IMG/VR virus record: IMGVR_UViG_3300038360_000413
Source: a virus
Taxonomy: Duplodnaviria; Heunggongvirae; Uroviricota; Caudoviricetes
Direction: 5' to 3' (one strand)
DNA length: 64,000 nucleotides
The translations under genes and the position numbers were made by a program. Every line of letters starts with the position of its first letter. Position 1 is the stretch's first letter. Shown in pieces: positions 11,794 through 37,289 of the stretch. A model generated the notes under the pieces. It was not told the DNA's origin, made no database searches, and was given only the letters and a program-made list of their open reading frames with translations.

Positions 11794-12624
11794 ATGAACA
11801 AACAGATAACAAATAAAAACATCCACTATCTTATGATAGATCCACAACAAGATTTTATGGATTTACCAGACTCAGCCTTGCCTGTGCCTGGAGCCACAAA
11901 AGACATGGATACGGTGGCCTCTATAGTACAAAAATGGGGACACGAGTTTGAGGATATTCACGTAACAATGGATACACACCAAAGATTGGCTATTTTTCAT
12001 CCAATGTTTATAAGAGATAAAAAAGGTAACATGCCTCCGGTATTTACTGCAATTTCACATGACGAGGTTATGAATGGAACTTGGAAAGCGTTTCATCCAG
12101 TACATCAAGATTGGTTAGAAGAGTATACACAAAAACTGGAAGAGCAAGGAAAATTCAGTTTATTTATATGGCCTTACCATTGTCTATTCGGATCATGGGG
12201 TCACAATGTGTATAAACCACTTTGGGATACTCTTCAAGAGTGGGAAGTCAAAAACAATGCACGTGTCAATTACGTACAGAAAGGTCACAATCCTTTCACA
12301 GAGCATTATTCCGCTGTAAAAGCTGAAGTTATTCGAGATGATGACGAAACGACTAATCTTAATAACAAATTCCTGGACATGCTCTCTAATCCTGAGGTAG
12401 ATATAATTCTTTCATCAGGTGAGGCGTTAAGTCATTGCTGGGCGTTTACTCTTGGAGATGTAGCCGACTACTTCTCTAAAGAGGACATCAAGAAACTGTA
12501 CTTGGTTGAGGGAACTTCCTCTCCAGTAGGCGGCTTTGAAGATGCAGGTGTCGAAGCTATCAAAAACATGAAAGCTAAGGGTATGCAAGTCATTCCCGCT
12601 GCAAACATTCCCGATTTATTTTAG
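11794..12624 (+). CDS. isochorismatase-fold hydrolase (possible nicotinamidase)
   Basis: HYLMIDPQQDF start resembling LIDxQNDF; possible catalytic Cys in SHCW. Confidence 0.4.
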   Translation: MNKQITNKNIHYLMIDPQQDFMDLPDSALPVPGATKDMDTVASIVQKWGHEFEDIHVTMDTHQRLAIFHPMFIRDKKGNMPPVFTAISHDEVMNGTWKAFHPVHQDWLEEYTQKLEEQGKFSLFIWPYHCLFGSWGHNVYKPLWDTLQEWEVKNNARVNYVQKGHNPFTEHYSAVKAEVIRDDDETTNLNNKFLDMLSNPEVDIILSSGEALSHCWAFTLGDVADYFSKEDIKKLYLVEGTSSPVGGFEDAGVEAIKNMKAKGMQVIPAANIPDLF

Positions 12625-13534: not shown

Positions 13535-14425
13535 GTGCAGGTATCGAATCCTGTCCATTCTAATACCTTTTTTCCAAAACACATTATGAAGCAAACAAAT
13601 ATAGATAAATTTAGTACGAAAGGAAGCACCCATAAGATCAATCAAGATTACGCATACGTAGAATCTTTAGAAGATGCCAAACTACTTGTTGTCTCAGATG
13701 GATGCTCCAGTGGAAGACTAGTTAGTATCGGATCTAGAATGATGTGTATGCTAGCAACTACGTACTTAAAAACCGCACAATATATAGACGAATTTATTAG
13801 ATTTCCTCGAACATTTGAAATGGCACTAACGGACGGATTGACCGAATTGTTAGATAACGAGGCGCTTGGACTACAAAAGGAAGATCTATTAGCTACAATT
13901 CTAGCCATATATTATGATAATAAAACATCCAGCTACGCATTAAAATATATAGGTGATGGATACATTCTGATAGAATATACATCAGGAGCCGTTATACTGG
14001 AAGAGTTGACATATGATGAAAATAAACCTATGTATCCCATATACTTAACTTCGAAATACGAACTCTCCTCTCCTTGTACTTTAAATCAAAAGTGGTACAT
14101 GAAAGAAAACGGCATATGGATAACATTGGGAACAGGAACAGGGTACAAACGCGCAATTGATACAATTTTCAGTACTTCCGAATCTGTAAAAAGAATGCAC
14201 CTTATTACTGATGGAATGTCGAGTTTTGTAAACAAAGCTACTTTAGAAAAAATTGATGTTACAAAGATAGCTGACGAAATACTCGCATTAAAATCAGATG
14301 ACGGACCATTCATGCAAAGACGTATGAAACGAATGCTTACTCTTTTTGAGAAAAAGAACATCTTTCCTGAAGATGATTTTACAATTGTAAGCCTTAATAT
14401 AAAGGAGATCAAAAGCGATGCATAA
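13535..14425 (+). CDS. PP2C-like protein phosphatase
   Basis: LVVSDGCSSG and LITDGMSSF motifs resembling PP2C metal-binding Asp motifs. Confidence 0.45.
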   Translation: MQVSNPVHSNTFFPKHIMKQTNIDKFSTKGSTHKINQDYAYVESLEDAKLLVVSDGCSSGRLVSIGSRMMCMLATTYLKTAQYIDEFIRFPRTFEMALTDGLTELLDNEALGLQKEDLLATILAIYYDNKTSSYALKYIGDGYILIEYTSGAVILEELTYDENKPMYPIYLTSKYELSSPCTLNQKWYMKENGIWITLGTGTGYKRAIDTIFSTSESVKRMHLITDGMSSFVNKATLEKIDVTKIADEILALKSDDGPFMQRRMKRMLTLFEKKNIFPEDDFTIVSLNIKEIKSDA

Positions 14426-14750
14426 TTCAAAAGAATTTAAACAAATTATTAAAGAAGTAGCAGAACAAAATAAATTAATCAATGCTATAGAGTCTATAAC
14501 ATGGAGTATAAAAACTATCGACAGACGTATGGACTCAGATGAATGTGCTATTTGTGGATTAGAAGCTTTAACAAGAGATAAAGATGGACCCGAGTTGAGC
14601 TCAATTAGTCTCGATTTAATAGATGTAGACACAAGAATTGAATTAGTCGCTAAACAGAAAAGACTATTAATAGAAGAGCGTAGTAAGGCAGAAAATGATT
14701 TACTAATCTTAAGAGAAAGATTTAAAAAAGATGCCAACAGTAATAAATAA
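14418..14750 (+). CDS. hypothetical protein
   Basis: 110-aa ORF. Confidence 0.35.
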   Translation: MHNSKEFKQIIKEVAEQNKLINAIESITWSIKTIDRRMDSDECAICGLEALTRDKDGPELSSISLDLIDVDTRIELVAKQKRLLIEERSKAENDLLILRERFKKDANSNK

Positions 14751-16467
14751 ACGGACTGGAAAATCGACTCAACTAAATGAAAGCAGTGATTTATTAGGTG
14801 AAGGCGGCGAAGGCAGAGTATTTGGTAAAGGCAACGAAGTATTCAAAATTTATATTAATCCCTCCGATGTAATTTCATTAGAAAAGATCAGAGAGTTACA
14901 GAAAATAAAATACAAAAATGTATTTATTCCAAAAGATATGTTAGTAGATCGACATGGTAAGCCTATAGGGTTCACAACAAATAGGGTGAAGAATTTCACG
15001 TATTTGACTCGATTATTTATTACAAGTTTTTGGGATAAGAATAATATCACAGTTGACAACATTGTAGCTTTAACAAAAGAAATGCAACACACGATCAAGC
15101 ATATACATGCACAACAAGTATTAATGGTTGACGGCAACGAGATGAATTATCTTGTAGATAGTAAAACTTATCAGATACCATACTTTATTGATGTAAACGC
15201 TTGGCAGACTCCAAGTTATCCTGCAACAGTAATTATGCCCAACATAAGAGATCATCATTCTTCTAAGTTTTCTGAATTTACAGATTGGTTCTCTTTTGGA
15301 ATAGTATCCTGTCAACTTTTTACAGGATTACACCCATACAAGGGCAGACATCCTCAGTATGCTGGAAGAAAGCAACTAGAAGCTCGTATGAAAGCGAACG
15401 TATCCATTTTCAACAAAGACACTAAAATACCAGGAGCGGTAAGAGATTTAGCTATTATTCCTCCCAACCTCAAAGAATGGTATATTAGAATGTTTGAAAA
15501 GGGAGAAAGATTAGAACCTCCAATGATCGGCAAACACACATTTACGTTTGAAGACAAACCGGTGGTTATTACTAACGAAAACTTCTATGTTCAAATGCTA
15601 GTATCCCTACCACATACTATTACACATCACTACGGAACAAGTGAAAATGATTATCTACAAACAAAAGAAAAAGTATATCAATATGATTTTATCACAAAAG
15701 CTTTAAAAGAATATGATTTAGTAAATAAGAACTCTAGAATATTAATTGACCCGATCCAAGATCAAAAAGCTTATGAAGTGTTTATTGAAAACACACATTT
15801 GCATATAAGAACCTTAGGTCAGTCAACAATTTCTGATACTAAATATAAAGCTGACGAAATTATGATTATAGATAATCGATTATACATAAAAACAGATGAT
15901 AAATTCCAACTAATGCGACTTTTCAAAGGTAGAACAGGACCAATGGTTGCGTCGGCTACAACTTTAAACGTAGCGGCCCAAGCCACACAACTGTTTGATG
16001 GAATGTTGTACTCACTTATAGGACAAAAACATTATCTGTATTTTCCCCAAAAAAATAACATAATTAAAACATTCATATCGGAACATTTGACGGATAGACG
16101 AGTATTAGATGCTAAGTACGAAAATGGTATTTGTATGCTCCGAACAATGAATAAGAAGACCGGTATTGAAGAATATGTATTATATATGAATGTAAATGAT
16201 GCCACGGACGTACAAATTAAACCTACGACGGTATCAATACTAAACTTTGTGTCTCTGCAAAAAAAGAGCTCACCTTTTGTATATCTCCATGAAGACGGCA
16301 AACTAACCCTTCTTCCAAAAGATGGCAGTACAGCAGGAAAAGTTGTAGAGCATAGAAACTTAACGACGAATTTGAAGTTGACGAGATCGGGTGATAGAGT
16401 AGGGTTGCTAACAAGGCACAAGTTCTATCGGGTCTCAACAAAAAAGTCAACAAGAAAAAATAACTAG
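14731..16467 (+). CDS. protein kinase-like protein
   Basis: Gly-rich loop LGEGGEGRVFGKG followed by VFKIY lysine; 578 aa; ends in TAG. Confidence 0.45.
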   Translation: MPTVINKRTGKSTQLNESSDLLGEGGEGRVFGKGNEVFKIYINPSDVISLEKIRELQKIKYKNVFIPKDMLVDRHGKPIGFTTNRVKNFTYLTRLFITSFWDKNNITVDNIVALTKEMQHTIKHIHAQQVLMVDGNEMNYLVDSKTYQIPYFIDVNAWQTPSYPATVIMPNIRDHHSSKFSEFTDWFSFGIVSCQLFTGLHPYKGRHPQYAGRKQLEARMKANVSIFNKDTKIPGAVRDLAIIPPNLKEWYIRMFEKGERLEPPMIGKHTFTFEDKPVVITNENFYVQMLVSLPHTITHHYGTSENDYLQTKEKVYQYDFITKALKEYDLVNKNSRILIDPIQDQKAYEVFIENTHLHIRTLGQSTISDTKYKADEIMIIDNRLYIKTDDKFQLMRLFKGRTGPMVASATTLNVAAQATQLFDGMLYSLIGQKHYLYFPQKNNIIKTFISEHLTDRRVLDAKYENGICMLRTMNKKTGIEEYVLYMNVNDATDVQIKPTTVSILNFVSLQKKSSPFVYLHEDGKLTLLPKDGSTAGKVVEHRNLTTNLKLTRSGDRVGLLTRHKFYRVSTKKSTRKNN

Positions 16468-16814: not shown

Positions 16815-16840
16815 TTGGGAAAAAAGACTTGACAACGCTC

Positions 16841-16875
16841 ATATAAGGGTGTATTATAAAATATGTATAATATTA
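16841..16875 (+). promoter_or_regulatory. sigma70-like promoter (TTGACA-17-TATTAT)
   Basis: CTTGACAACGCTCATATAAGGGTGTATTATAAA. Confidence 0.4.
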
Positions 16876-17098: not shown

Positions 17099-17170
17099 GC
17101 GACTGTGGTCCAATGGCTAAGATTTCTGGCTTCCACCCAGACGATGAGGGTTCGATTCCCTCTAGTTGCT
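17099..17170 (+). tRNA. tRNA-Gly (anticodon TCC)
   Basis: Acceptor GCGACTG/TAGTTGC, anticodon stem TCTGG/CCAGA, loop CTTCCAC, T-arm GAGGG-TTCGATT-CCCTC. Confidence 0.55.
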
Positions 17171-17177
17171 CAATAAT

Positions 17178-17252
17178 GCGAATATAGCTCAGCTGGTCAG
17201 AGCGTAACTTTGCCAAAGTTAAGGTTCGTGGATTCGACTTCCACTATTCGCT
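17178..17252 (+). tRNA. tRNA-Gly (anticodon GCC)
   Basis: Acceptor GCGAATA/TATTCGC, D-stem GCTC/GAGC, loop TTGCCAA, T-arm GTGGA-TTCGACT-TCCAC. Confidence 0.55.
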
Positions 17253-17283
17253 CAAACAATAACTTATTAACAAGGAGTGCATA

Positions 17284-17529
17284 ATGGCACAAAAAGCAAA
17301 ATCCAGTAAAAAAGGAAGAGACAAAGTAAAATGCAAACGTTATTCAGATCGCGAAAGACGAGAGTTTAACAAAGCAGGAAGAGTTGTAAGATACATATTA
17401 GGTAAACCAGGACACGCCGGCAAAGAGATGAAAATTGCTCTACATATAATCGGCGAAGATAAAAATAAAAATCCTGGAGCATTAAAAAAATTTGTTCTTC
17501 GTAAATTAGCTCAACACAATATTTCGTAA
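17284..17529 (+). CDS. small basic protein
   Basis: 81-aa K/R-rich ORF between tRNA genes. Confidence 0.35.
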   Translation: MAQKAKSSKKGRDKVKCKRYSDRERREFNKAGRVVRYILGKPGHAGKEMKIALHIIGEDKNKNPGALKKFVLRKLAQHNIS

Positions 17530-17535
17530 AATAAT

Positions 17536-17632
17536 AGTTAGGTCGTCCAATAGACTAGGATATGTGAAAACGGGTGGTGCAAACCATTGGCGATTAGTAG
17601 CAAATGTAGGTTCAAGTCCTACCCTAACTGCC
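17536..17632 (+). ncRNA. tRNA-like element, 97 nt with encoded CCA, internal fold unresolved
   Basis: Perfect 7-bp acceptor AGTTAGG/CCTAACT, T-arm GTAGG-TTCAAGT-CCTAC, G discriminator and CCA; D-stem GTCC/GGAT; no canonical anticodon arm found. Confidence 0.35.
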
Positions 17633-17990
17633 ATAACGTTTGCTCCTCTGACGTCAACTGTGTGATTATAGCGCACGGGAAGGGGAGCGACCAATTAGAG
17701 GGGGAGTTCTCCGGAGGTCTGCCTTCCAAAGCAGATTGCGCAGGTTCAAGATCCTGTACTCCTCCGCCAATTAACGCAGGTTCGTTTAAATCTAGGACCC
17801 CTCCATTGAGGAGGGAAATGTGGTGTAGTAACCCACACCTGCGGCCAAATTATAAGTAGGAAGTTGGATTAGCGGTACCCATCTTTTAAAGAGTGGGGAG
17901 AGAACTAAAGTTCGAGGATCAGAGTTTATAAACTGAGTGACAGGTGAAAGAAACTGCATCCCTTTGGTGTAATAACACACTACTTATATT
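17633..17990 (+). ncRNA. GC-rich structured non-coding region (unidentified RNA)
   Basis: Local GC far above genome average; only short overlapping ORFs on both strands; a second tRNA-like element (GGGGGAG...CTCCTCC-G-CCA, 17699-17768) and several GC hairpins. Confidence 0.3.
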
Positions 17991-18003
17991 TTTAAAAATG
18001 AAA

Positions 18004-18504
18004 TTATAATTTAGTAGTTGAATGGTCTAAAAGCCAATGGCAATTGGGACACAAATACTTCAAATTAGTCGGTGCATTAACTTCGGCAATTTTGGTAGTT
18101 AAAGGAAAAGTAGAAATTGGTTGAATATGCGCTATTTCCACGTGCGACTCCCAACCACAGTCTTCACAAATTTTAGGACGGTTTTCAAGTTCTAACACAG
18201 ATTTTGCACGACGCCGTATAGGATTATATTTCCAAGGACCTTTTTTATGATATAATTTTTCTTGAATTGTAGCATCATTAAAAGAAGATAAAGCTTTTTT
18301 TCTTCTACAAACATGACAATGTGCATTTTGACGGCTTATTTTATACCCACAAACTATGCAAAGACATATTGCTACTCGTTTTGGATGTTTTCGATTATTA
18401 TAAATTGCTGCACAACTATGTGTACAAAAATTATTTTTAGTCCTTTTAATTTGACTAGGTCTTTTATCAAATTCTTTGGTGCATTGTTTACATTTTACTT
18501 TCAT
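18004..18504 (-). CDS. HNH homing endonuclease
   Basis: CEDCGW...HVEIAH...NLKYLCPNCHWL HNH motif plus N-terminal zinc-finger cysteines; sits on the opposite strand inside the tRNA island. Confidence 0.65.
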   Translation of the reverse strand: MKVKCKQCTKEFDKRPSQIKRTKNNFCTHSCAAIYNNRKHPKRVAICLCIVCGYKISRQNAHCHVCRRKKALSSFNDATIQEKLYHKKGPWKYNPIRRRAKSVLELENRPKICEDCGWESHVEIAHIQPISTFPLTTKIAEVNAPTNLKYLCPNCHWLLDHSTTKL

Positions 18505-18575
18505 GGTTTAATATATAAAACAGAGAGTCGAAAGTCAACACTTATGTTACTTAAGCAACATTTTTAGGATTCAAT

Positions 18576-18650
18576 AGTGCGCGAGTCTGCTAGGTGTAGA
18601 CGTCACTCTGTCACAGTGAATATAGACGGGTTCGAATCCCGTGCGTACTG
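18576..18650 (+). tRNA. tRNA-Asp (anticodon GTC)
   Basis: Acceptor AGTGCGC/GCGTACT, D-stem GTCT/AGAC, anticodon stem TCACT/AGTGA, loop CTGTCAC, T-arm ACGGG-TTCGAAT-CCCGT. Confidence 0.65.
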
Positions 18651-18922: not shown

Positions 18923-19033
18923 ACTTACGGGGGTTGGGACTGCAATGGGGTGGTCATTTCTTTTGCACGGAAAAAAACAGACGGAATCGTTCTCCGTAGC
19001 CTCCACTAACACACTAATAATAAAGGACTTGAC

Positions 19034-21661: not shown

Positions 21662-21745
21662 GCTGATATTTCCTGAGAGGTCAAAAGGTTCTGATTTGTA
21701 ATCAGATGACGAAAGTCTTCGCAGGTTCGAATCCTGCTATCAGCC
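21662..21745 (+). tRNA. type-II-like tRNA (long variable arm) with anticodon read as TGT
   Basis: Acceptor GCTGATA/TATCAGC, 3-bp D-stem with large loop, anticodon stem TCTGA/TCAGA, loop TTTGTAA, 14-nt variable hairpin GAC-GAAA-GTC, T-arm GCAGG-TTCGAAT-CCTGC. Confidence 0.5.
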
Positions 21746-21766
21746 CAACAAATAAAAGGAACAAAA

Positions 21767-22222
21767 ATGAAAACATTAAACAAAATAATCTTCAACGCAA
21801 AAAAGCCCTCGGGTTATGATGAATACTTTTCTAATTTCGCAGATTCTCCTATTACAATTGATGATATTAAATACCCAACAGTAGAACATGCATTTCAGGC
21901 ACACAAAACCATCAGCCCAACATTGCGTGTTGAAATGGCACAAATGCCAACACCAGGAAAAGCTAAACGTGCGGGTCGCAGAGTAAGCCTTCGCCCAGAT
22001 TGGGAAGAAGTAAAATATGACGTAATGGTCGTTTGCCTAAGAGAAAAGTTCAAGATAGAACTTTACAAAAAAATATTACTCTGTACACAAGATGTTGAAA
22101 TCATAGAAGACGCTGCCCAGTGGAATGACACTGAGTGGGGAATTGGAAAAGACGGAAAAGGCAAAAACCTTTTAGGAAAAGCATTAATGCAAGTAAGAAA
22201 GGAACTAAATGAAAACAAGTAA
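21767..22222 (+). CDS. NADAR-domain protein (YbiA/DUF1768 family)
   Basis: YFSNF...YPTVEHAFQAHK motif typical of NADAR. Confidence 0.55.
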   Translation: MKTLNKIIFNAKKPSGYDEYFSNFADSPITIDDIKYPTVEHAFQAHKTISPTLRVEMAQMPTPGKAKRAGRRVSLRPDWEEVKYDVMVVCLREKFKIELYKKILLCTQDVEIIEDAAQWNDTEWGIGKDGKGKNLLGKALMQVRKELNENK

Positions 22223-22571
22223 AGCGTTTACAGTAATTGAATTAATACTCGTAATAACAATAGTAGGTATTATGGTTACAGTTGGATACCAAAAATTCTC
22301 AAAAGATAAACACAATCAAGAATCATCGACATATACAGAGTATATAGAGGATGAGTATCCTACCGAAGTATCTTCCACACTGCAGTCAGAATTTACTGTC
22401 GTTATTTATGATGAGCAATGGAACGAAACACATAGAGAAACGTTCATTGCTGGACATGCGTTAGTAGAGAAACATAAACTAACTCTTTCTGACAAAAGAA
22501 AAGGAAATATAATTCAGATAATGTATATCAAAGATGAAAATTGGAAACTAATAGAAAACAAAAAATATTAA
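22209..22571 (+). CDS. type IV pilin-like (prepilin N-terminus) protein
   Basis: N-terminus KAFTVIELILVITIVGIM resembles the class III signal/N-methyl-Phe pilin motif. Confidence 0.45.
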   Translation: MKTSKAFTVIELILVITIVGIMVTVGYQKFSKDKHNQESSTYTEYIEDEYPTEVSSTLQSEFTVVIYDEQWNETHRETFIAGHALVEKHKLTLSDKRKGNIIQIMYIKDENWKLIENKKY

Positions 22572-22578
22572 TTTAAAT

Positions 22579-22666
22579 GGATCTGTAAAGTATTAAGGCA
22601 GGTACCCCAGTCTGTAAAACTGGTCCCTTAGGGGTCGAGTGGGTTCAATTCCCTCCAGATTCACCA
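22579..22666 (+). tRNA. tRNA-Tyr (anticodon GTA), type II
   Basis: Acceptor GGATCTG/CAGATTC, anticodon stem CCAGT/ACTGG, loop CTGTAAA, long variable arm, CCA encoded. Confidence 0.65.
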
Positions 22667-22670
22667 TTTC

Positions 22671-22746
22671 GCTCTGGTAGCTCCAATGTTAGAGCAATCG
22701 GCTGATAACCGATAGGTTGGTAGTTCAAGTCTACCTCAGAGCACCA
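22671..22746 (+). tRNA. tRNA-Ile (anticodon GAT)
   Basis: Acceptor GCTCTGG/TCAGAGC, D-stem GCTC/GAGC, anticodon stem ATCGG/CCGAT, loop CTGATAA, T-arm GGTAG-TTCAAGT-CTACC, CCA encoded. Confidence 0.75.
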
Positions 22747-22762
22747 ATAACCAAAAACAAAC

Positions 22763-23119
22763 ATGAAAATTGATTTTAATCAAGTAATAACTAATGCTTT
22801 ATCAGCGTTAGTAACCCTAGTTCTTATAAGCGCTTTCGGAATGATGTGGCGCGGATATTCAACCATAGACACTTCTATAAGCCTAGCAACTGACGAAATA
22901 AAAAAGGCTGTAGAGGAGTTAACCAGTAATACCACATATACAGTCGAAGCAGTTGAACTAATAGAAGAAGAGCTAGCAAACCTTCATAATAGAATTGATA
23001 ATATTCCCACAGAAATATCGGAGGCAGAAGCTGAATCAGAAGTATTTTTCGAGGAAAGCTTCCAGGAACGTCCAAAGGAATATATACAACGTCAATTACC
23101 AAACCTAAAAAAGAAATAA
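22763..23119 (+). CDS. hypothetical protein (N-terminal TM, acidic C-terminus)
   Basis: 118-aa ORF. Confidence 0.4.
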   Translation: MKIDFNQVITNALSALVTLVLISAFGMMWRGYSTIDTSISLATDEIKKAVEELTSNTTYTVEAVELIEEELANLHNRIDNIPTEISEAEAESEVFFEESFQERPKEYIQRQLPNLKKK

Positions 23120-23132
23120 TATAGGATACAAA

Positions 23133-23402
23133 ATGCCTTATTTAAGTAGAACATTATGTTCGGTTCTCGATGAAATGAGGGCCTGCCATAAAACTAGAAA
23201 TTTTACATATTTACCAGGGCTTATCGAAGAGGCACAATCAATGGGAAACCGCATGGAAGCCGCTATCGAGGATAAGAATGATTTGGATACTTACCGAAGA
23301 CAAGGTAAGGCAGTAGAAAAGGAAAACAAAAAGCTTAGAAAAGAGCAAAAGGCTCTTCAAGAAGAAATCGAAAAGCTAAAGAAAAAGAAAGAAAAACCTT
23401 AA
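23133..23402 (+). CDS. hypothetical coiled-coil protein
   Basis: 89-aa ORF, K/E-rich C-terminus. Confidence 0.35.
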   Translation: MPYLSRTLCSVLDEMRACHKTRNFTYLPGLIEEAQSMGNRMEAAIEDKNDLDTYRRQGKAVEKENKKLRKEQKALQEEIEKLKKKKEKP

Positions 23403-23426
23403 CATAAACTTTTAGAAAGGAATTAC

Positions 23427-24590
23427 ATGTTTAAAACAATACCTAGCATCTTATGGAATGATTTTTATCAGTTCACAATGCAGAATGCTGTATTTCAACT
23501 ATTTCCTAACGTAATAAGCAGAGATCGACTCATCACTCGTGGTCATAAAATTAAATATGATGAGTTAATGGTAGGCGAATTAAAAAGGCACATTAGAAAC
23601 ATGTCAGAATTACGCTTACGTGCGCATGAATGTGTGTTTATGCATGCGCAAGGTATTTTTCCACATACTTACTTAGAATACTTAAATGGATATCAATACG
23701 ATCCAACTGAATTGGTAATTCAAAATATAGACGGCTACTTAGATATCTATTCAGAAGGATATACTTATAGCACTATGCTTTGGGAGACACCTATTTTGGC
23801 ACTAATCACTTGGTTAGGCTTAAAATATGATGAAACACAGCAAATGCCTTCCCAAGAAATAATTCGAAAAGAATCGCAGGAAAAAGCGAGTCGAATTAAA
23901 ATGGAAGGGTTGAAAGTTGCTGATTTTGGAGCACGCAGAGCGTTATCTCCAGAAATACATGCCAACGTGGTTGAAACTATGAAAAAATCTTTAGTTGGTA
24001 CCAGCAATGCTTACTTAGCCATGAAAAATGGAATCAAACCTATTGGCACGCAAGCACATAAATGGTATATGCTTAACGCAGCAATATACGGCTACAATAT
24101 GGCAAATCATTTCGGACTTGAAAATTGGGTAAAAGTATATGATGGCAATCTAGGAATAGCTTTACCTGACACATTTACCACACCGGTTTTTCTAGAACAA
24201 ATGACTACCAAACAAACAAAGTTATTTGATGGAATGCGCCAAGATAGTGCCAGTCCGACAAAAATTGGAGAGTCATATATTCGACACTATAAAGATCACC
24301 AGGTCGACCCTCTAACTAAAACTGCTATATTTTCTAATGCTCTTAATTTAGTAAAAGCCGTAGGACTAAGAGATTGGTTTGATGGTAAAATACAAACAGC
24401 ATTTGGAATGGGTGGGTTTCTTACAAACCATCTTGCAGGTATCAAAGTACCAAGCACAGTCTGGAAACTTTCAGAAGTAATGGTGCACGACAAATGGATA
24501 CCTGTGGTCAAACTATCAGATGATCCAGGAAAATATTCCGGAACAGTAGAAGAAATGCAGAGATGCAGAACAACATTGCGGTTAGATTAA
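23427..24590 (+). CDS. pncB: nicotinate phosphoribosyltransferase-like (NAPRTase family)
   Basis: N-terminus LWNDFYQFTMQNAVF matches the NAPRTase N-terminal signature (D-x-Y-K/Q-x-T-M); about 387 aa. Confidence 0.65.
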   Translation: MFKTIPSILWNDFYQFTMQNAVFQLFPNVISRDRLITRGHKIKYDELMVGELKRHIRNMSELRLRAHECVFMHAQGIFPHTYLEYLNGYQYDPTELVIQNIDGYLDIYSEGYTYSTMLWETPILALITWLGLKYDETQQMPSQEIIRKESQEKASRIKMEGLKVADFGARRALSPEIHANVVETMKKSLVGTSNAYLAMKNGIKPIGTQAHKWYMLNAAIYGYNMANHFGLENWVKVYDGNLGIALPDTFTTPVFLEQMTTKQTKLFDGMRQDSASPTKIGESYIRHYKDHQVDPLTKTAIFSNALNLVKAVGLRDWFDGKIQTAFGMGGFLTNHLAGIKVPSTVWKLSEVMVHDKWIPVVKLSDDPGKYSGTVEEMQRCRTTLRLD

Positions 24591-24711: not shown

Positions 24712-24803
24712 ACTCCTGTAGTTATAATTGGTAAAACGGCTGATTTATAATCAGTATAGCGTCAGATGAACGTGAGTTCCAGGTTCGAGTCCTGGTGGGA
24801 GTA
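24712..24803 (+). tRNA. type-II-like tRNA (23-nt variable arm) with anticodon read as TAT
   Basis: Acceptor ACTCCTG/TGGGAGT, anticodon stem GCTGA/TCAGT, loop TTTATAA, variable hairpin CGT-CAGATGA-ACG, T-arm CCAGG-TTCGAGT-CCTGG. Confidence 0.45.
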
Positions 24804-24824
24804 CAAACAAAGAAAGGAAACAAA

Positions 24825-25559: not shown

Positions 25560-25701
25560 GGCTGAGTAGCGAAATTGGTACACGTTATGACCGGGTCAAC
25601 GTATGAGCATGCAAGCGCCCCGAGAACAACCTGTTGTTTAAAATATGTTTAGCGGCATATGGGACAATAGGAAGTTGAAGGTTCGAATCCTTCCTCGGCC
25701 A
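25560..25701 (+). ncRNA. 142-nt tRNA-like gene with an internal insertion of about 65 nt (or degenerate tRNA)
   Basis: Acceptor GGCTGAG pairs with CTCGGCC 142 nt downstream next to a perfect T-arm GAAGG-TTCGAAT-CCTTC; interior does not fold as a standard cloverleaf. Confidence 0.3.
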
Positions 25702-25726
25702 CACAAATAAATTAACCAACAACAGA

Positions 25727-27595: not shown

Positions 27596-27874
27596 CTTTG
27601 AAAAGACCTATCCCATGACTTAGGTGTCGGAGGATACGCGATCTGTACTACAGACATGCTAAGCCCCACTAAATATCTGGTATCTCCAGAGGCCGCGAAC
27701 CTGTAGGCACCACTGAGCAACTAGCTGAAATGTATTAAGCCGTATAGTGTAGTGAGAGTGGGAATAATTGGCCCATAACATATAGTTGATAACGCGGGAT
27801 ACAACCTGTTATCTGTAAAATTCGCTATATGAATGATCAAGCGTAAAAAAGCCTTCATAGGTCTTTTCAACTAA

Positions 27875-27945
27875 TGCCCCGTGGTATAATGGTAGAACAC
27901 AAGGTTTTGGTCCTTGGGACAGCGGTTCGATTCCGCTCGGGGTTG
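27875..27945 (+). tRNA. tRNA-Gln (anticodon TTG)
   Basis: Anticodon stem CAAGG/CCTTG, loop TTTTGGT, T-arm AGCGG-TTCGATT-CCGCT; position 1:72 unpaired as in many Gln tRNAs. Confidence 0.6.
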
Positions 27946-29502: not shown

Positions 29503-29504
29503 TG

Positions 29505-29557
29505 CTCCCCCTTTGCGCAAGCCCCGACCTCATGAGTTGACGGCGGGGGAGCTACCA
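29505..29557 (+). ncRNA. 53-nt GC-clamped hairpin/minihelix ending ...GGGGGAGC-T-ACCA
   Basis: GCTCCCCC pairs with GGGGGAGC around a 37-nt interior; no T- or anticodon arm. Confidence 0.25.
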
Positions 29558-29573
29558 ATTAATTAAAATTCCG

Positions 29574-29646
29574 ACGCGGGATAACAGTCAATGCAGATTT
29601 TTGGGCTCATACCCCGGAGCGTGTAGGTTCAAGTCCTACTCCCGCT
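29574..29646 (+). tRNA. tRNA-Met (CAT), initiator-like
   Basis: Loop CTCATAC; three G:C pairs at the base of the anticodon stem (GGG/CCC); position 1:72 C-U unpaired. Confidence 0.55.
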
Positions 29647-29669
29647 ACTAATAACAACATAAAATTCTG

Positions 29670-30338: not shown

Positions 30339-30424
30339 GTGTAGGTGGTAGATTTGGGAATACACTCGGCTGTGACCCGAGTTGGAGACAGCTCCTCATG
30401 CGGGTTCGAACCCCGTCCTACACC
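30339..30424 (+). tRNA. type-II tRNA (long variable arm) with anticodon GTG
   Basis: Perfect acceptor GTGTAGG/CCTACAC, 3-bp D-stem GTA/TAC, perfect anticodon stem CTCGG/CCGAG, loop CTGTGAC, variable hairpin GGAG-ACAG-CTCC, T-arm GCGGG-TTCGAAC-CCCGT. Confidence 0.55.
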
Positions 30425-30461
30425 CAAATAAGAAAACATTCCAACAAAATAAGGAAAGGAA

Positions 30462-31466: not shown

Positions 31467-31550
31467 GGGGCGATGCTAGAGCGGTCGAATAGGGTGGTTT
31501 GCAAAACCATCGAGTATATCTCCACATCAGTTCGAATCTGATTCGTCCCT
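31467..31550 (+). tRNA. tRNA with Cys anticodon (GCA) but a 15-nt variable region
   Basis: Acceptor GGGGCGA/TCGTCCC, anticodon stem GTGGT/ACCAT, loop TTGCAAA, T-arm ATCAG-TTCGAAT-CTGAT. Confidence 0.45.
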
Positions 31551-31569
31551 CAAATAACCAAGAAAGATT

Positions 31570-32785: not shown

Positions 32786-32859
32786 GCGCGAGTAGTTCTA
32801 GCGGCTAGAACAGGAGATTCTAAATCTCTGTGTCGCGGGTTCAAGTCCCGCCTCGCGCA
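32786..32859 (+). tRNA. suppressor tRNA, anticodon CTA (reads UAG amber)
   Basis: Canonical 75-nt cloverleaf: acceptor GCGCGAG/CTCGCGC, D-stem GTTC/GAAC, anticodon stem GGAGA/TCTCT, loop TTCTAAA, T-arm GCGGG-TTCAAGT-CCCGC. Confidence 0.7.
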
Positions 32860-32870
32860 CATAAAATTAA

Positions 32871-32964: not shown

Positions 32965-33513
32965 ATGAGAACACGTACACTTGTTATTAATAAAAGTTAT
33001 ATGGCTTTACACGTAGTAGATTGGCAAAGAGCAATGACTTTAGTATGTAAAGGTATAGCGGAAAGAGTTGAAACCCATACGGAGGGACACTTACGAACGA
33101 CAAGTGGAGGCGTTAGTAAAGAATGGGGAATGCCAGCAGTCATACGACTTGTAGATTTCAACTTTCCACCAAAAGGCGGACAACAATACCAACGTCTTAA
33201 TAAGCATAATTTATGGATGAGAGACGGAGGTAAATGTGTATATTGCGATATAGACTTAAGCACACACAATATGACTGCAGATCATGTTATTCCTAAAAGT
33301 AAAGGTGGCAAAAAATCTTGGGATAATCTAGTATGTTCTTGTAAGAAGTGTAATGGCAAAAAAGGAGATAAAACTCCAGTACAAGCTAATATGCCTTTGA
33401 AAAAGAAACCATATGCACCAACTCTGAATGCATCTTTATCTATTAAGATAAGGAAAGAAATCAGTCTTTATAAAATAGTCCCTCAAACTTGGAAACCCTA
33501 CATTTTTTGGTAA
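32965..33513 (+). CDS. HNH endonuclease
   Basis: CVYCD...ADHVIPKSKGG...CSCKKCNGKKGDK HNH-N motif. Confidence 0.65.
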   Translation: MRTRTLVINKSYMALHVVDWQRAMTLVCKGIAERVETHTEGHLRTTSGGVSKEWGMPAVIRLVDFNFPPKGGQQYQRLNKHNLWMRDGGKCVYCDIDLSTHNMTADHVIPKSKGGKKSWDNLVCSCKKCNGKKGDKTPVQANMPLKKKPYAPTLNASLSIKIRKEISLYKIVPQTWKPYIFW

Positions 33514-33522
33514 AAGACTTTT

Positions 33523-33598
33523 GCGCCTGTATGCCGCTCGGTTACGAACCGAGAGAAAGCTAATTGGACACATACAGGTTCGACTCCTGTCAGGCGTA
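33523..33598 (+). ncRNA. atypical 76-nt tRNA-like gene: anticodon-arm hairpin (loop TTACGAA, ACG) 7 nt after the acceptor; D-loop-like AGCTAATTGGA after it
   Basis: Acceptor GCGCCTG/CAGGCGT and T-arm ACAGG-TTCGACT-CCTGT are perfect, but arm order is non-canonical. Confidence 0.35.
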
Positions 33599-33656: not shown

Positions 33657-34340
33657 GTGAAAGTACAGTTGGAATCAAAAGAAAGACTGAAAACCTGTAC
33701 AAAATGTAAGACCAAAAAACCTACAACCGAATTTCATAAAAAAACATCCGCAAAAAGCGGATTGTGTTCACATTGCAAATCTTGTGTAAAAAAATATAAT
33801 GCTGAACATAAAACTGAGATAGCCGAACGCGGTCGAAAATATCGTGTGAAACATAAAGTTGAAATATGTAAAAGAAAACAAAAATATCATGCTGAGCATA
33901 AAACTGAAATAGATAAAAAAAATAAAACATATTATATAAATCACAAAGTTGAAATAGCTGAGCGTAAGCGCAAATATAGAATTAAACATGCAGTAGAAAT
34001 AATCGAAAATCGACGAAAGTATTGTATTAAACATAGTGATAAAATTATAGAACAGACTCGAAAATGGCGAAAGAATAATCGAGATAAACATGCAGCAATA
34101 CAAGCAAAAAGAAGAGCAAATAAAATAGCTCAGACTCCAGTTAATGCCGACATGAAGAAGATCGGTGAGTTTTATACTGAAGCACGTCGGCTAACCGAAG
34201 AAATCGGAATTCCCCACGAAGTTGATCATATTATACCGATAAGTAAAGGAGGACTTCATCACGAAGATAACTTACAGATCCTAACGAAGTCGGAAAATTG
34301 TCGGAAAAGCGATAAACTTCCCGAAGAATTAGAAAAATAA
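33657..34340 (+). CDS. HNH endonuclease with N-terminal K/R-rich repeats
   Basis: C-terminal HEVDHIIPISKGG...NLQ HNH motif; repeated KYRVKHKVEI units. Confidence 0.55.
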   Translation: MKVQLESKERLKTCTKCKTKKPTTEFHKKTSAKSGLCSHCKSCVKKYNAEHKTEIAERGRKYRVKHKVEICKRKQKYHAEHKTEIDKKNKTYYINHKVEIAERKRKYRIKHAVEIIENRRKYCIKHSDKIIEQTRKWRKNNRDKHAAIQAKRRANKIAQTPVNADMKKIGEFYTEARRLTEEIGIPHEVDHIIPISKGGLHHEDNLQILTKSENCRKSDKLPEELEK

Positions 34341-34365: not shown

Positions 34366-36486
34366 ATGAATATTAATTCGATCTTTTTAAGACGAAAGAG
34401 CAAAATATGTCTTCCTGAAATAACAGAAGGCAATAAAGCAATCCCGGTTACTTACTTAGCAGCTATGTTAAGAAATTTCGCAGGGCTTGGATTTATATTT
34501 ACAACAAATGTAATAGAACGTCTAAAATATCTTCCAGTATCTGTACTTGAAGATTTCTATCTAAAGACTATGATTACTCTTAAACAACTAAAAGGTGTTA
34601 AAACCTACGAACCGATGTATCCTAATTTCCCTAAACAGGTAATGGAGGCATCCTCAGCCGAGCTCTTTATGAATGCTATAGTGCAGTATTGGTTTGGCGC
34701 ATATCCAGCATATGAAAAAGAAGAAAGACTTCCTCTTTTTGAAGAAACTGAAATAACTGTAATAGATTTAGGAACTCCAAAAGAATTTGGAAAAATCTTT
34801 CATGACATGATGTCTTCAAATGCCTCTATATCAGAATTAGATAAAAAAGAACTAGACTGGTTCTTTGCAAATCTTACTGATTTGGCATGTCGAATGGTTC
34901 CAGCTGCAATGCCACAAAAAGAAATTTTGGCATATACAGTAGGACTTATTTCTAAATATGTTACTGGGAACATTGAACTTATTATGCCTCTCTTTACAAC
35001 TGCAACAGATGTATTGAGATTGGCTGTGGCTTTGTCTGACGGCGACGTTAGTTTAGCTAAGAAAACTAAGTTCAGAAACTTTACTCGACCAGAACGTAGA
35101 TTGTTCTTAGCAGTTATAAATTCTCTAAATTACTACAATCTTAGAGAAAATATGCAGCAATACAGAGAACCGTGGTTACGTATCGCTCATCAACTACATC
35201 CAGGTGAAGTTCAATTCAAATATCCAACTGCCTTTAAAGCATTTCATGCCCTTCGAAACGAAAACAAAGTGAGAACTTTTGATGGTAAGGTGGAAATAGC
35301 ATTTAAGAACAAAAACTGCGTCGATCTGTGCACGCTTTTGGTCAAAAGACCGGGTGTTTTTGCACGTACATTGGACAGAATTCTTAGAAGTTTTCCAAAC
35401 GAACACGCCCAGATTTTGAGTGAATTTGCAACAGTTGCAGCTGAGGCATCTACTCCTGTACTAATACAAACATTAGCACATATTCGTAAACGTTCGAATA
35501 CTCCTCAATTGCGTTCTTATGTTCCTAAGGGAAACATTGGTAAAGTACAAATTCATGACAATACTTTTACAGACTTACCTTCTGACACTGTTAAAAGTGC
35601 AGAAGCTGTGTGTGAAAAATCTCTTGAAACTAAGTTTAGTGACTTAGATGAAATGCAAACAGTATTCTTAGATGATAACATGGTAGACTATGTAATACCT
35701 TTCGGACAACGTTCAGCTTCTGAAGCTCTACGCATAATTCCAAGAGGATCTCATATGCCATTAGCTGATAAAAGCACCCTACGTCTTTTCACTTGGTGGA
35801 AAAATAACACTGGAAGAGTGGACGTGGATTTATCAGTGCTACTATTTCGTGAGGATTGGAGCACATATGGACGTTTATCATACACAAATCTAAGAGATGA
35901 TAACATACGATCTTATCATAGCGGAGATATCACAAGTCCAGCACCTGCAGGTGCTTGCGAGTTTGTTGATATCAACAAGCAGTCAGCACTACGCAAAGGA
36001 GCCCGATTTGTATTAATGAATCTTCTTTCCTACACACGTCAGCCATTCAAAGATTTCGAGTGTATAGCTGGTTGGATGGACAGAGACGGTATACAATCTG
36101 GTGAAATTTTCGAACCAACTACGGTTACACAGAGATATGATGTAAACAGTGATGTTAGAGTACATATCCCAGTGTTATTTGACCTAAAAGAGAACAAAGC
36201 AATTTGGATCGATTTGGCAATCACTGATAAAATTAACCGAGGCGGAAATAACGTTGAATCTAATGCTGTGACTTTAAACAGGTTAGCGCAAGTAATAACC
36301 GAAAGAGGTTACTACAATTTGCATGAACTGTTCAAATTACACACAAGAGCTCGTAAGGGTAAGTTTGTAGAAACACCCGAAGAAGCGGACGTAGTTTTCA
36401 CTGCTTCCGACTATAAATCTGAAAATAAGCAAACGGTGGTAACGCCGTATGACACTGAAGTAATCGCTGCAGAGTTTCTTCAGTAA
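34366..36486 (+). CDS. large hypothetical protein (706 aa) immediately upstream of the tRNA-like array
   Basis: Long uninterrupted ORF followed by hairpin terminator at 36521-36540. Confidence 0.55.
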   Translation: MNINSIFLRRKSKICLPEITEGNKAIPVTYLAAMLRNFAGLGFIFTTNVIERLKYLPVSVLEDFYLKTMITLKQLKGVKTYEPMYPNFPKQVMEASSAELFMNAIVQYWFGAYPAYEKEERLPLFEETEITVIDLGTPKEFGKIFHDMMSSNASISELDKKELDWFFANLTDLACRMVPAAMPQKEILAYTVGLISKYVTGNIELIMPLFTTATDVLRLAVALSDGDVSLAKKTKFRNFTRPERRLFLAVINSLNYYNLRENMQQYREPWLRIAHQLHPGEVQFKYPTAFKAFHALRNENKVRTFDGKVEIAFKNKNCVDLCTLLVKRPGVFARTLDRILRSFPNEHAQILSEFATVAAEASTPVLIQTLAHIRKRSNTPQLRSYVPKGNIGKVQIHDNTFTDLPSDTVKSAEAVCEKSLETKFSDLDEMQTVFLDDNMVDYVIPFGQRSASEALRIIPRGSHMPLADKSTLRLFTWWKNNTGRVDVDLSVLLFREDWSTYGRLSYTNLRDDNIRSYHSGDITSPAPAGACEFVDINKQSALRKGARFVLMNLLSYTRQPFKDFECIAGWMDRDGIQSGEIFEPTTVTQRYDVNSDVRVHIPVLFDLKENKAIWIDLAITDKINRGGNNVESNAVTLNRLAQVITERGYYNLHELFKLHTRARKGKFVETPEEADVVFTASDYKSENKQTVVTPYDTEVIAAEFLQ

Positions 36487-36547: not shown

Positions 36548-36618
36548 ACGGAGGTAGCTCAACAGAAGAGCGATGGGTCGCTCCCTGCGTGCTGGTTCAA
36601 ATCCAGCCCTCCGTGCCA
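36548..36618 (+). ncRNA. tRNA-like gene with truncated anticodon arm, CCA encoded
   Basis: Acceptor ACGGAGG/CCTCCGT, D-stem GCTC/GAGC, T-arm GCTGG-TTCAAAT-CCAGC, G-CCA; only 18 nt where anticodon arm plus variable should be. Confidence 0.35.
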
Positions 36619-36758
36619 AATTCGCTGGCTATTTTATTGCTTCCTTCTAAACGCCCAGTGGGCACTTGAATAAGGATCAAACAAAAAACAGTAATAAAGA
36701 TTTCCAGCAAACAATTCGTTTGGCTATATGATAGTTTCCTTCCATAATTTGCCTTAAA

Positions 36759-36830
36759 AGCAAGCGGTTGCGGGTTCGAGTCCCGTCACCATCTTCGGGT
36801 GGTGTAGCTCAATTGGTAGAGCTCTTAATC
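36759..36830 (+). ncRNA. permuted tRNA-like module U1
   Basis: T-arm GCGGG-TTCGAGT-CCCGT, CACCATC-TTCG-GGTGGTG closed acceptor, D-arm GCTC-AATTGGTA-GAGC. Confidence 0.45.
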
Positions 36831-37138
36831 CAACTGTCGTGATTTCCAAACACCCTTTTACTAGATCGTTTAATAAGTACGCTTCGTACTTAGAGATACT
36901 TGCAAAAGATCTTCAACGTAAAGAACTTCTCTTCGATGTCCTGACGGGACATCAGAGAAATTCACAAAGACCTCGTACAAACCCCGGCAACCAGGACTTT
37001 TCCTTCCAGATTCATGAACTCTCTACGAGTGTCCATCAAATCGTTACAGGAAACTACCTGGTGCCAGCTTTGTACATAGCCTTTTAGTAGTAAACAAATT
37101 TCGTTTGGCTATTTATAAACTTCCTTCTATAAACGCAA

Positions 37139-37209
37139 TCCGGGGGTCACAGGTTCGAATCCTGTCAGGCTGCTTCGGCGGTCTGTAGCTCAGTTGGCAG
37201 AGCACCGGA
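37139..37209 (+). ncRNA. permuted tRNA-like module U2 (best preserved)
   Basis: TCCGG (anticodon 3' strand), GGGTC variable, ACAGG-TTCGAAT-CCTGT T-arm, CAGGCTGC-TTCG-GCGGTCTG closed acceptor, D-arm GCTC-AGTTGGCA-GAGC, CCGGA (anticodon 5' strand). Unit closed by GTTTGG (37103) pairing with CCAAAC (37238). Confidence 0.55.
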
Positions 37210-37289
37210 CTTTAAAGTAACCCAGTTTATAAGATTTCCAAACACCCTTTTTATATTTGTTGGCCATATAATATGCTTCCTTCTATTAT

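Follow-up and report, generated by a model that had tools for sequence, protein, structure and literature searches.

Tandem tRNA-shaped genes in a phage tRNA array as possible non-decoding mimics of the tRNA acceptor half

A 64,000-nucleotide (nt) stretch of DNA from a virus of the Caudoviricetes (IMG/VR record IMGVR_UViG_3300038360_000413; hereafter, the window) carries an array of transfer RNA (tRNA) genes on its + strand, near the start of which lies a GC-rich block of RNA. This block was found to consist of three tandem tRNA-shaped genes, designated E1, E2, and E3, together with a leader hairpin (H) and a tail (E4). The preferred reading is that E1-E3 mimic the acceptor/T-arm half of a tRNA without decoding and are matured by tRNA-processing enzymes, a proposal that stands about evenly poised between right and wrong. 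A first-pass annotation had described a GC-rich structured RNA block with CCA-ending tRNA-like elements at this position, and this description holds: the block is non-coding, and its GC content between 17536 and 17848 is 50.2% versus a window mean of 36.2%. The same annotation had placed about 360 nt of additional RNA after the first element. That RNA is indeed structured, but it is not a single molecule, comprising instead H, E2, E3, and a tail of about 138 nt.

Such a composition is uncommon in this AT-rich piece of a large phage genome. Across 300-nt windows of the full 64 kilobases (kb), the standard deviation of the GC content is 4.2%, and only 1.2% of these windows reach 49% or more; the other GC islands mostly coincide with RNA genes. 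The spacers between E2, E3, and E4 measure 3-5 nt, a packing also seen in the neighbouring tRNA genes. The array itself comprises 26 tRNAs (called by ARAGORN at its default threshold), a transfer-messenger RNA (tmRNA), and a tRNA(CUA). At the default threshold, ARAGORN calls none of E1, E2, or E3. When the threshold is relaxed to 90%, E1 and E2 are among 30 calls, all of them on the + strand; the minus strand of the 64 kb has no call, which places the tRNA-likeness of these two elements above chance; a further relaxation to 80% yields 16 minus-strand false positives in the window.

The three elements share a fully paired acceptor helix of 7-8 base pairs (bp) stacked on a T-type arm. All acceptor pairs form (7/7 in E1, 8/8 in E2, and 7/7 in E3), as do nearly all T-stem pairs (5/5, 5/5, and 4/5, respectively). 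Each element also ends in a G discriminator followed by a genome-encoded CCA (3/3); CCA is encoded in just 7 of the 26 canonical tRNAs of the array (chance of about 0.02). The loops, on the other hand, are aberrant. None of the anticodon loops has 7 nt, their lengths being 4 nt in E1 (a GCAA tetraloop), 8 nt in E2, and 5 nt in E3. Moreover, the canonical elbow between D-loop and T-loop (G18G19 with a T-loop of the form UUCRANY) cannot be formed in any of the three: the D-loops of E1 (AAUAGACUA) and E3 (AAAUCUA) lack GG, E2 has no D-loop, and the T-loop of E3 reads GUAGUAA. This pattern of intact helices and aberrant loops supports the mimic reading.

E1 is a 98-nt tRNA-shaped gene on the + strand (17536-17633), recognized from its sequence, its minimum free energy (MFE) fold, and ARAGORN at the 90% threshold. 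Its acceptor stem (AGTTAGG/CCTAACT, 7/7) is followed by a D-arm (GTCC-9 nt-GGAT) and, on the 3' side, by a T-arm (GTAGG-TTCAAGT-CCTAC) with a canonical T-loop, the G discriminator, and CCA. The intervening 44 nt hold a GU-GAAA-AC mini-hairpin, a 6-bp hairpin (GGTGGT-GCAA-ACCATT), and a GC-8 nt-GC motif, with no anticodon arm. The perfect acceptor, T-arm, discriminator, and CCA first noted for this element, as well as its missing anticodon arm, are therefore confirmed, except that the CCA ends at 17633 rather than 17632. Its Rfam tRNA score is 14.9 bits, the gathering score being 29. ARAGORN labels the element tRNA-Arg(ACG), an assignment that was rejected because the anticodon stem as drawn consists of three G.U pairs and a mismatch. 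A stretch of 21 nt in the T-arm is identical to positions 38067-38087.

The possibility that these elements are interrupted tRNAs was examined by making all single deletions of 5-89 nt in E1-E4, alongside shuffled controls and a positive control, the interrupted gene at 29542. The latter was recovered in 30/30 calls as tRNA-Met(CAU) with a 33-39-nt insertion. For E1, 10 of 2080 deletions were callable, and these implied at least six different anticodons, while interior-shuffled controls gave between 0 and 98 hits; an interrupted tRNA was thus rejected. The scan produced no hits for E2, E3, or E4. As no single deletion restores a canonical tRNA, E1-E4 are not simple interrupted tRNAs, and the intron mode of ARAGORN likewise found nothing in the block.

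E2 is a 70-nt tRNA-like gene (17700-17769, + strand) that ARAGORN calls at both the 80% and 90% thresholds. The second CCA-ended element described earlier is thus real, with its coordinates shifted by one from 17699-17768. Its Rfam tRNA score of 25.3 bits (E 0.013) lies below the gathering score of 29. The acceptor helix has 8 bp, the topmost being G1-C72, G2-C71, G3.U70, G4-C69, and G5-C68, and the D-arm is vestigial. A 5-bp anticodon stem (TCTGC/GCAGA) encloses an 8-nt loop, CUUCCAAA, which equals the loop of the phage tRNA-Trp (UUCCAAA) plus one nucleotide and which ARAGORN reads with the four-base anticodon UCCA at the 80% threshold. The T-stem (GCAGG/CCTGT) carries another 8-nt loop, TTCAAGAT, and the 3' end consists of G73 and the encoded CCA. 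The last 15 nt, CCTCCGCCAATTAAC, recur exactly as the 3' end and trailer of tRNA-Ser(UGA).

The top five acceptor pairs of E2 are identical to those of the phage tRNA-Ala(UGC) and tmRNA, and besides these three only one further acceptor stem in the window contains G3.U70. tRNA-Ala and tmRNA are the two known substrates of alanyl-tRNA synthetase (AlaRS), and this enzyme also charges minihelices. The G3.U70 pair was reportedly identified as its major determinant by Hou and Schimmel and by McClain and Foss in 1988. Given this determinant and the charging of minihelices, alanylation of E2 by AlaRS through its G3.U70 helix appears plausible from the sequence, despite the presence of G73. A sub-threshold tRNA-Ala(UGC) that has both G3.U70 and A73 is located at 18929-19006; ARAGORN reports it only when relaxed to 90%.

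Between E1 and E2 lies H (17640-17690, + strand), a leader hairpin with an MFE of -22.7 kcal/mol. It is built from an outer stem (TTGCTCCTCT/AGGGGAGCGA), an inner stem (CTGTGTG/CGCACGG), and a 7-nt apical loop (ATTATAG), and none of 200 shuffled sequences was as stable (z-score -3.0). The layout of H followed by E2 recurs at 29503-29649, after tRNA-Asn, where GCTCCCCC...GGGGGAGC and then T-ACCAATTA precede a non-canonical tRNA-Met(CAU)-like gene. The string GGGGAGC-N-ACCAATTA is common to the block and to position 29546, and GGGGAGC occurs at only these two sites in the window. Comparison of the two copies of H revealed one pair changed on both sides (T-A to C-G) and one changed on a single side (T.G to C-G). 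These sequences suggest that a module of a leader hairpin and an odd tRNA was duplicated, despite low overall similarity. The gene at 29503-29649 is itself interrupted, with a 33-39-nt insertion in the D region behind its H-type leader hairpin, and it is missed by ARAGORN at the default threshold.

E3 (17775-17847, + strand) is a 73-nt cloverleaf-shaped gene, detected through its sequence, its fold, and a scan with a cloverleaf-plus-NCCA template. A 7-bp acceptor stem (CGCAGGT/ACCTGCG) leads via TC to a D-arm (GTTT-AAATCTA-GGAC), and the following stem (CCTCC/GGAGG) closes the 5-nt loop ATTGA, or alternatively a 7-nt loop with A33. After the 5-nt variable region GAAAT comes an arm (GTGGT-GTAGTAA-CCCAC) with 4/5 pairs and a non-canonical T-loop, and then the G discriminator and encoded CCA. 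The dimensions are exactly those of a cloverleaf (7/2/4-7-4/1/5-5-5/5/5-7-5/7), and 0/200 shuffles are as stable as the element (z -3.3). On the + strand of the window, the relaxed template matches only E3, tRNA-Glu, Ile-GAU, and Asn; it gives a single minus-strand hit and none in 40 block-shuffled windows. Applied to 115 kb of tRNA arrays from other phages, it returned hits with 7-nt anticodon loops exclusively. ARAGORN calls the E3 interval in its organellar mode, and Rfam gives no tRNA hit. The hairpin GGTGTAGTAACCCACACC, previously noted among the stable hairpins of a 220-nt downstream stretch, belongs to E3; the remainder of that stretch, which is E4, is weakly supported.

E4, a tentative member of the set, is the 138-nt tail of the block (17851-17988, + strand). 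It is closed by a 9-bp AU-rich helix (TATAAGTAG/CTACTTATA), contains several small hairpins and a GGTGAAAG segment, and is followed directly by TTTTT at 17989-17993. No likeness to tRNA was detected in it by ARAGORN, the deletion scan, or the cloverleaf template, and Rfam returned nothing beyond chance-level matches to small nucleolar RNAs (snoRNAs). A low-threshold ARAGORN call of tRNA-Arg(GCG) at 17845-17930 was rejected once the drawn stems had been inspected. A decayed tRNA-Glu, the usual neighbour of the closest homologues of the adjacent HNH gene (see below), was also considered and rejected for want of similarity.

If the mimic reading is right, E1-E3 would be co-transcribed with the tRNA-Gly genes and an 81-amino-acid (aa) open reading frame (ORF) located upstream. 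RNase P would then cut their 5' ends, 3' trimming would halt at the encoded CCA, and the stable products, about 98, 70, and 73 nt long, would build up. The CCA may have been hard-wired into the genes because the CCA-adding enzyme would act poorly on molecules that lack an elbow. The mature RNAs could mimic the acceptor end of tRNA, binding or occupying its readers rather than translating codons. Candidate targets include RNase P, aminoacyl-tRNA synthetases, EF-Tu, and host toxins or sensors aimed at the acceptor end. Beyond the intact helices, the mimic reading is supported by the folds of H and E3, which are far better than those of shuffled sequences, and by the abundance of tRNA mimicry in this phage, which has eight Y-RNA-like units and several non-canonical tRNA genes. 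The raised GC content, the CCA encoded in all three elements, their tRNA-like spacing, and the Ala-type acceptor of E2 count in its favour as well.

Several observations weigh on the other side. The fold of E1 is no more stable than its shuffles (z -0.8), and that of E2 is only mildly better (z -1.6); E2 also has G73, the discriminator of Ala acceptors being A73. E4, whose fold is unremarkable (z -1.0, with 30/200 shuffles as stable) and whose GC content is 39.6%, is left unexplained by the mimic reading. Short mosaic identities to the phage's own tRNA genes, along with the adjacent homing endonuclease gene, fit recent recombination. Furthermore, no diverged homologue of the locus was found in GenBank phages, IMG/VR, or the protein, metagenome, and GTDB collections, which puts covariation and conservation beyond test. 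Finally, the firmness of the reading is tempered by the fact that we infer processing, stability, charging, and any decoy role from sequence.

A more specific proposal, which is rather doubtful at present, is that E1-E3 serve as dedicated decoys or sponges for host readers of the acceptor end, such as toxins directed at the CCA or acceptor stem or a synthetase; E2 would then be chargeable by AlaRS, and the elements would complement the eight Y-RNA-like units as a second class of mimic, one with normal topology. Equally unlikely is that E1-E3 and H are recombination debris, namely recent, non-functional tRNA pseudogenes or chimeras that arose by duplication and gene conversion promoted by homing endonucleases. 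The mosaic identities point in this direction (the E1 T-arm with 38067-38087, the E2 end with tRNA-Ser(UGA), and GGGGAGC-N-ACCAATTA with 29546), as do the HNH gene abutting the block, the presence of at least two more in the array, the residence of this HNH family in tRNA arrays, and the absence of conservation evidence for the elements among the collections searched. However, random decay should strike stems and loops alike, and here every helix is intact and the loops alone deviate. The GC content has been held at 50% within a genome of 36% GC, CCA is encoded in 3/3 elements versus 7/26 real tRNAs, and the two copies of H differ by a pair-keeping change on both sides, all of which speaks against debris. 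It is improbable, too, that the elements are mere processing punctuation, that is, t-element-like cleavage signals for RNase P and RNase Z that define the 3' end of the 81-aa ORF mRNA and whose excised RNAs lack a function. E1 does begin 6 nt past the stop codon of that ORF, and plant-mitochondrial t-elements work in exactly this manner (PMC1920247). Nevertheless, a single element would suffice for such a purpose, and three are kept in tandem with a leader hairpin; cleavage signals need no encoded CCA, yet all three have one; and no + strand mRNA would be released downstream, the next gene on that strand being tRNA-Asp at 18576.

An unconventional decoding role is likewise a long shot. According to this idea, E2 (and possibly the others, once modified or processed) is charged, probably with Ala, and reads UGG or UGGA, leading to +1 frameshifting or recoding. 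E2 has a clean 5-bp anticodon stem, an 8-nt loop, the four-base anticodon UCCA, and an Ala-type acceptor helix, and the phage also has an amber-suppressor-type tRNA(CUA) and a further 8-nt-loop candidate at 38015. There is precedent as well, since tRNAs with 8-nt loops, both natural and engineered, can decode quadruplets (PMC9094753). Opposing this, E2 lacks a D-arm and an elbow, its T-loop has 8 nt, and its discriminator is G73, not A73; a usable anticodon loop is missing from both E1 and E3; and no E2-like gene was found in 185,579 representative genomes or in IMG/VR. With standard stop codons, moreover, no UGGA site in the 64-kb window joins long frame-0 and +1 ORFs, and no ORF pair needs a +1 shift at an in-frame UGG-A. 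Membership in a known RNA family (RNase P, Y RNA/YrlA, tmRNA, group I intron, or ROOL/GOLLD), or identity as an interrupted tRNA of the Lak type, is very improbable. The window does contain a tmRNA and eight Y-like units, interrupted tRNAs occur at 29542 and 25560 and in a distant relative (L021, below), and Lak phages carry tRNA introns (PMC6784885), but the searches described next match none of these families and deletions restore nothing. Least credible of all is that the 90-aa ORF at 17587-17859 or an overlapping 62-aa ORF on the minus strand is a gene. The open frames exist; they nonetheless run through tRNA-type helices, and the 90-aa ORF starts with TTG, belongs to no Pfam or PHROG family, and has just two marginal matches, the output of gene callers across the block being nearly empty.

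Rfam was scanned at the gathering score over the whole window and at E<=10 over 17250-18600 (1.35 kb). The latter search detected no RNase P, tmRNA, tRNA-Sec, YrlA, group I intron, ROOL, or GOLLD, the only matches being sub-threshold tRNA hits and chance snoRNA or CRISPR matches; at the gathering score, the whole window likewise yielded none of these families apart from its true tmRNA, at 43370 (88.8 bits). An RNase P-like RNA, one of the identities raised in the first-pass annotation, is thus not borne out even at this permissive cut-off. The same is true of Y-RNA-like mimics, another suggestion, as YrlA gave no hit and the flanking motifs of the phage's Y-like units (5' GTTTGGCYAT-hairpin-CTTCCTTCTA and 3' GATTTCCAAAC) are both absent from 17530-17990. 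A covariance model, R1, was built from five of the Y-like units. It recovers all eight units at 36621-38193, three of them untrained, with 37.7-146.6 bits; in the block, with filters off, it finds only two bare T-arm hairpins (model positions 55-71; 11.9 and 3.8 bits). E1-E3 have the normal topology, 5'-acceptor...acceptor-3' with free ends, as opposed to the permuted arrangement of the YrlA type.

The ORFs of the block are short and overlap one another, as had been noted, and none has a Pfam or PHROG family. The longest considered, the 90-aa ORF, begins with TTG and is overlapped by 62-aa ORFs on the minus strand. A conserved protein encoded there would have spoken against a non-coding block, and none was found: a HMMER search against 1.84 billion representatives returned two marginal multi-stretch hits, neither with E<=1e-10. 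Gene callers reported nothing across the block except for minus-strand ORFs of 42 and 39 aa that clip its 5' edge in two contigs.

The search for relatives extended over several collections. Contigs fetched from several samples are identical in the block wherever they cover it; the locus is present in ENA ERZ4231637, ERZ4198920, and ERZ4231634, in Logan SRR12949700, and in JGI 3300037805, 3300038364, and 3300037807. Among GenBank phages, blastn matched only the tRNA-Gly genes, and scanning of IMG/VR by pattern and with three flanking proteins revealed no diverged locus. A search of 5.8 billion proteins left the 81-aa ORF an orphan and gave hits of at most 40% identity for a 578-aa neighbour; the relatives of other neighbouring proteins lie only at or below 37-56% identity and have no alignable intergenic RNA. 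A metagenome scan anchored on a metallophosphatase had a best match of 47% identity, without tRNAs. The exact E1 signature was absent from GTDB genomes (0 hits), and of the 33 matches there to a class-level E2 pattern, not one had both of its stems paired.

One distant relative, L021 (JGI 3300043172), is a 228-kb phage sequence with GC-rich, gene-free blocks. Positions 8560-8955 of L021 hold a weak tRNA-like gene and, after it, about 300 nt with 53% GC. Two tRNA genes with insertions of 50-110 nt lie at 11836-12010 and 12088-12205, and a further block of about 400 nt occupies 12200-12620. Genes for RNA ligases, including one of the Rnl1 type, are located about 8-12 kb upstream in this locus. 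Given the GC-rich blocks, the weak tRNA-like gene, and the interrupted tRNAs of L021, RNA-gene clutter of this sort seems typical of this phage group. 'Enigmatic' tRNA introns and highly expressed intergenic regions have been described in the Lak megaphages (PMC6784885, Devoto et al. 2019).

Comparison with known systems helps to place the elements. E1-E3 resemble canonical tRNA genes (RF00005) in their strand, their tight packing in the array, and their acceptor helix, 3'-side T-arm, discriminator, and CCA. They differ in their anticodon loops of 4, 8, and 5 nt, where canonical loops have 7 nt with U33, in the lack of an elbow and, for E2, of a D-arm, and in falling below both the Rfam gathering score and the ARAGORN default threshold. 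YrlA (RF02553) and the phage's own Y-like units are, like E1-E3 as read here, non-decoding mimics in which the T-arm and an acceptor-like helix are retained. Unlike E1-E3, they are permuted (T-arm, loop-closed acceptor stem, D-arm), are enclosed by a terminal stem, and have no free CCA. mascRNA-type tRNA-like processing signals are of the same class as t-elements. Plant-mitochondrial t-elements are tRNA-like structures that serve as processing signals (PMC1920247). E1 shares with them a tRNA-like fold without decoding next to an mRNA end, lying 6 nt past a TAA, and presumed recognition by RNase P/RNase Z; the block differs in having three such elements in tandem, all encoding CCA, within a phage tRNA operon.

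Quadruplet-decoding tRNAs of the sufD type and their engineered counterparts (qtRNAs) are matched by E2 in the 5-bp stem, the 8-nt loop, and the putative anticodon UCCA. These are otherwise canonical, whereas E2 is missing the D-arm, has 8 nt in its T-loop, and carries identity signals of mixed kind. The tRNA cluster of phage T4 encodes the stable RNA species 1 and 2 (rnaC and rnaD), which are matured from tRNA precursor transcripts, and the same region hosts the homing endonuclease SegB. If stable, E1-E3 would be comparable to rnaC and rnaD as small RNAs encoded among phage tRNA genes. The intron-containing tRNAs of Lak phages resemble E1-E4 in being oversized tRNA-like genes in the arrays of huge phages. 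Removal of a single segment restores no canonical tRNA from E1-E4. Genes of the Lak type do occur in this phage, at 29542 and 25560.

Phage tRNA arrays are usually viewed as a supply of codons or as spare parts against host defence, and E1-E3 keep only the acceptor/CCA half of the molecule in working order. Should these RNAs prove to be made and stable, phages would have genes for tRNA mimics that are normal in topology but do not decode, raising the question of which enzymes or defence systems of the host recognize the acceptor end of tRNAs in the course of infection. E2 would be a natural molecule in which an alanine-type acceptor is joined to an enlarged Trp-like anticodon loop, a combination relevant to recoding. 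The block also makes plain that a sizeable share of the RNA genes in arrays of this kind escapes standard tRNA finders and Rfam.

The block sits near the beginning of the array, in the order tRNA-Gly pair, 81-aa ORF, block, convergent HNH gene, and tRNA-Asp at 18576. The two tRNA-Gly genes (17099-17253, + strand) are the first in the array, and a strong sigma70-like promoter is located upstream of them at 16829-16857. The 81-aa ORF (17284-17529, + strand) is in the same + strand run and encodes a highly basic orphan protein preceded by a Shine-Dalgarno sequence, AAGGAG; its TAA stop codon lies 6 nt before the start of E1. Neither Pfam nor PHROG yielded a family for this protein, its sole match among the 5.8 billion proteins is itself, and its single-sequence AlphaFold2 (AF2) model is of low confidence, with a predicted local distance difference test (pLDDT) value of 62. 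No canonical terminator was found within the block. Other array genes include a SpoU methylase, and genes for NAD salvage (NAPRTase, NADAR, and a cytidylyltransferase-like protein) are scattered between the tRNAs at 21767-24590 and 38946-39482. Just upstream of the array (13535-16467) are genes for a PP2C phosphatase and the 578-aa kinase-like protein, whose relatives, at 40% identity or less, include Beggiatoa-type bacteria.

On the minus strand, a 166-aa HNH homing endonuclease gene (18004-18504; Pfam HNH_2 9.9e-6, HNH 2.3e-4) converges on the 3' end of the block and has its own sigma70-like promoter at 18538-18510. Eight of its nine homologues from IMG/VR, with 31-43% identity, lie inside phage tRNA arrays, the ninth being a partial match of 23 residues. 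Two closer homologues (P0123 and P0124, 55-56% identity) are also situated within such arrays. The protein is a member of a homing endonuclease family that resides almost exclusively inside phage tRNA arrays. At five of the homologue loci (L012, L015, and L023-L025), the 3' end of a tRNA abuts the HNH stop codon; at L021, a co-directional tRNA-Glu begins 4 nt past the stop; and for the closest homologues, it is a tRNA-Glu that abuts the stop codon. The idea that the endonuclease is a protein partner of the block RNA, in the manner of IscB and omega-RNA, was rejected: the protein has only 166 aa, and since its homologues (31-56% identity) adjoin ordinary tRNAs in both orientations, it is not a partner of this RNA. 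Three HNH endonuclease genes were counted inside the array, at 18004-18504, 32965-33513, and 33657-34340.

The eight Y-RNA-like units stand in tandem at 36621-38193 (+ strand). In each, a cargo of 45-100 nt sits between the 5' flank GTTTGGCYAT-hairpin-CTTCCTTCTA and the 3' flank GATTTCCAAAC, with GTTTGG pairing with CCAAAC. In five units the cargo is a tRNA-like domain in circularly permuted order (T-arm, loop-closed acceptor stem, D-arm), and three units match Rfam YrlA (E 8e-8, 1.5e-7, and 0.026), all under the gathering score. Homologous inserts of about 250-270 nt separate consecutive units at 36856-37100 and 37502-37775 (+ strand). Both start with TTTTACTAGAYCGTTTAATARGTACGCT and finish with TTTTAGTAGTAA, the second is GC-rich, and neither matches Rfam. 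No Ro60/TROVE protein was identified; the adjacent 706-aa ORF (34366-36486) lacks a Pfam or PDB match and falls only into PHROG 33734, for which no function is annotated.

Non-canonical tRNA genes are found elsewhere in the array. Long variable arms are normally confined to Leu, Ser, and Tyr tRNAs, and hairpin-forming arms of this kind are present in tRNA-Thr(UGU) (21662-21746), Ile(UAU) (24712-24804), His(GUG) (30339-30425), and Cys(GCA) (31467-31551), which measure 85-93 nt. A 143-nt interrupted tRNA gene of ambiguous identity, with an insertion of about 55-65 nt, occupies 25560-25702 and is missed by ARAGORN at its default threshold. Two tRNA-like genes have Arg anticodon arms: CUCGG-UUACGAA-CCGAG (ACG) at 33523-33597 and AACGAU-CUUCUAA-GUCGUU (UCU) at 38015-38096, the latter with an Rfam tRNA score of 39.8 bits and an 8-nt loop according to ARAGORN. 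In both, a D-arm-like segment containing AATTGG apparently follows the anticodon arm rather than preceding it. At 36548-36618 lies a tRNA-like gene, scoring 43 bits with Rfam tRNA, that encodes its CCA and has an anticodon loop of 6 nt.

Further GC-rich RNA was noted on the + strand. Between tRNA-Leu(UAA) and tRNA-Gln, a long inverted repeat (TTTGAAAAGACCTAT...ATAGGTCTTTTCAA) closes a block of about 270 nt (27597-27875) that matched no gene or RNA family. Right after tRNA-Ser(GCU), a GC-rich segment at 41294-41380 holds a T-arm-like hairpin (AGGG-TTCGATT-CCCT) within a 6-bp helix (TGATGT/ACATCA), another tRNA-like fragment, in this case lacking CCA. Neither a credible ORF nor an Rfam match with E<=1 was found in an island of about 800 nt at 62860-63670, where GC reaches 58%. 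The z-score of its fold is -5.1 for the + strand and -4.2 for the opposite one, and the island terminates in a hairpin and a T-run, making it a candidate large structured RNA as judged by its modelled fold. Lastly, the tRNA(CUA) at 32786-32860, labelled 'Pyl' by ARAGORN, is a very stable canonical cloverleaf (z -5.0) of the amber-suppressor type, which suggests that part of the phage genome may use TAG as a sense codon.

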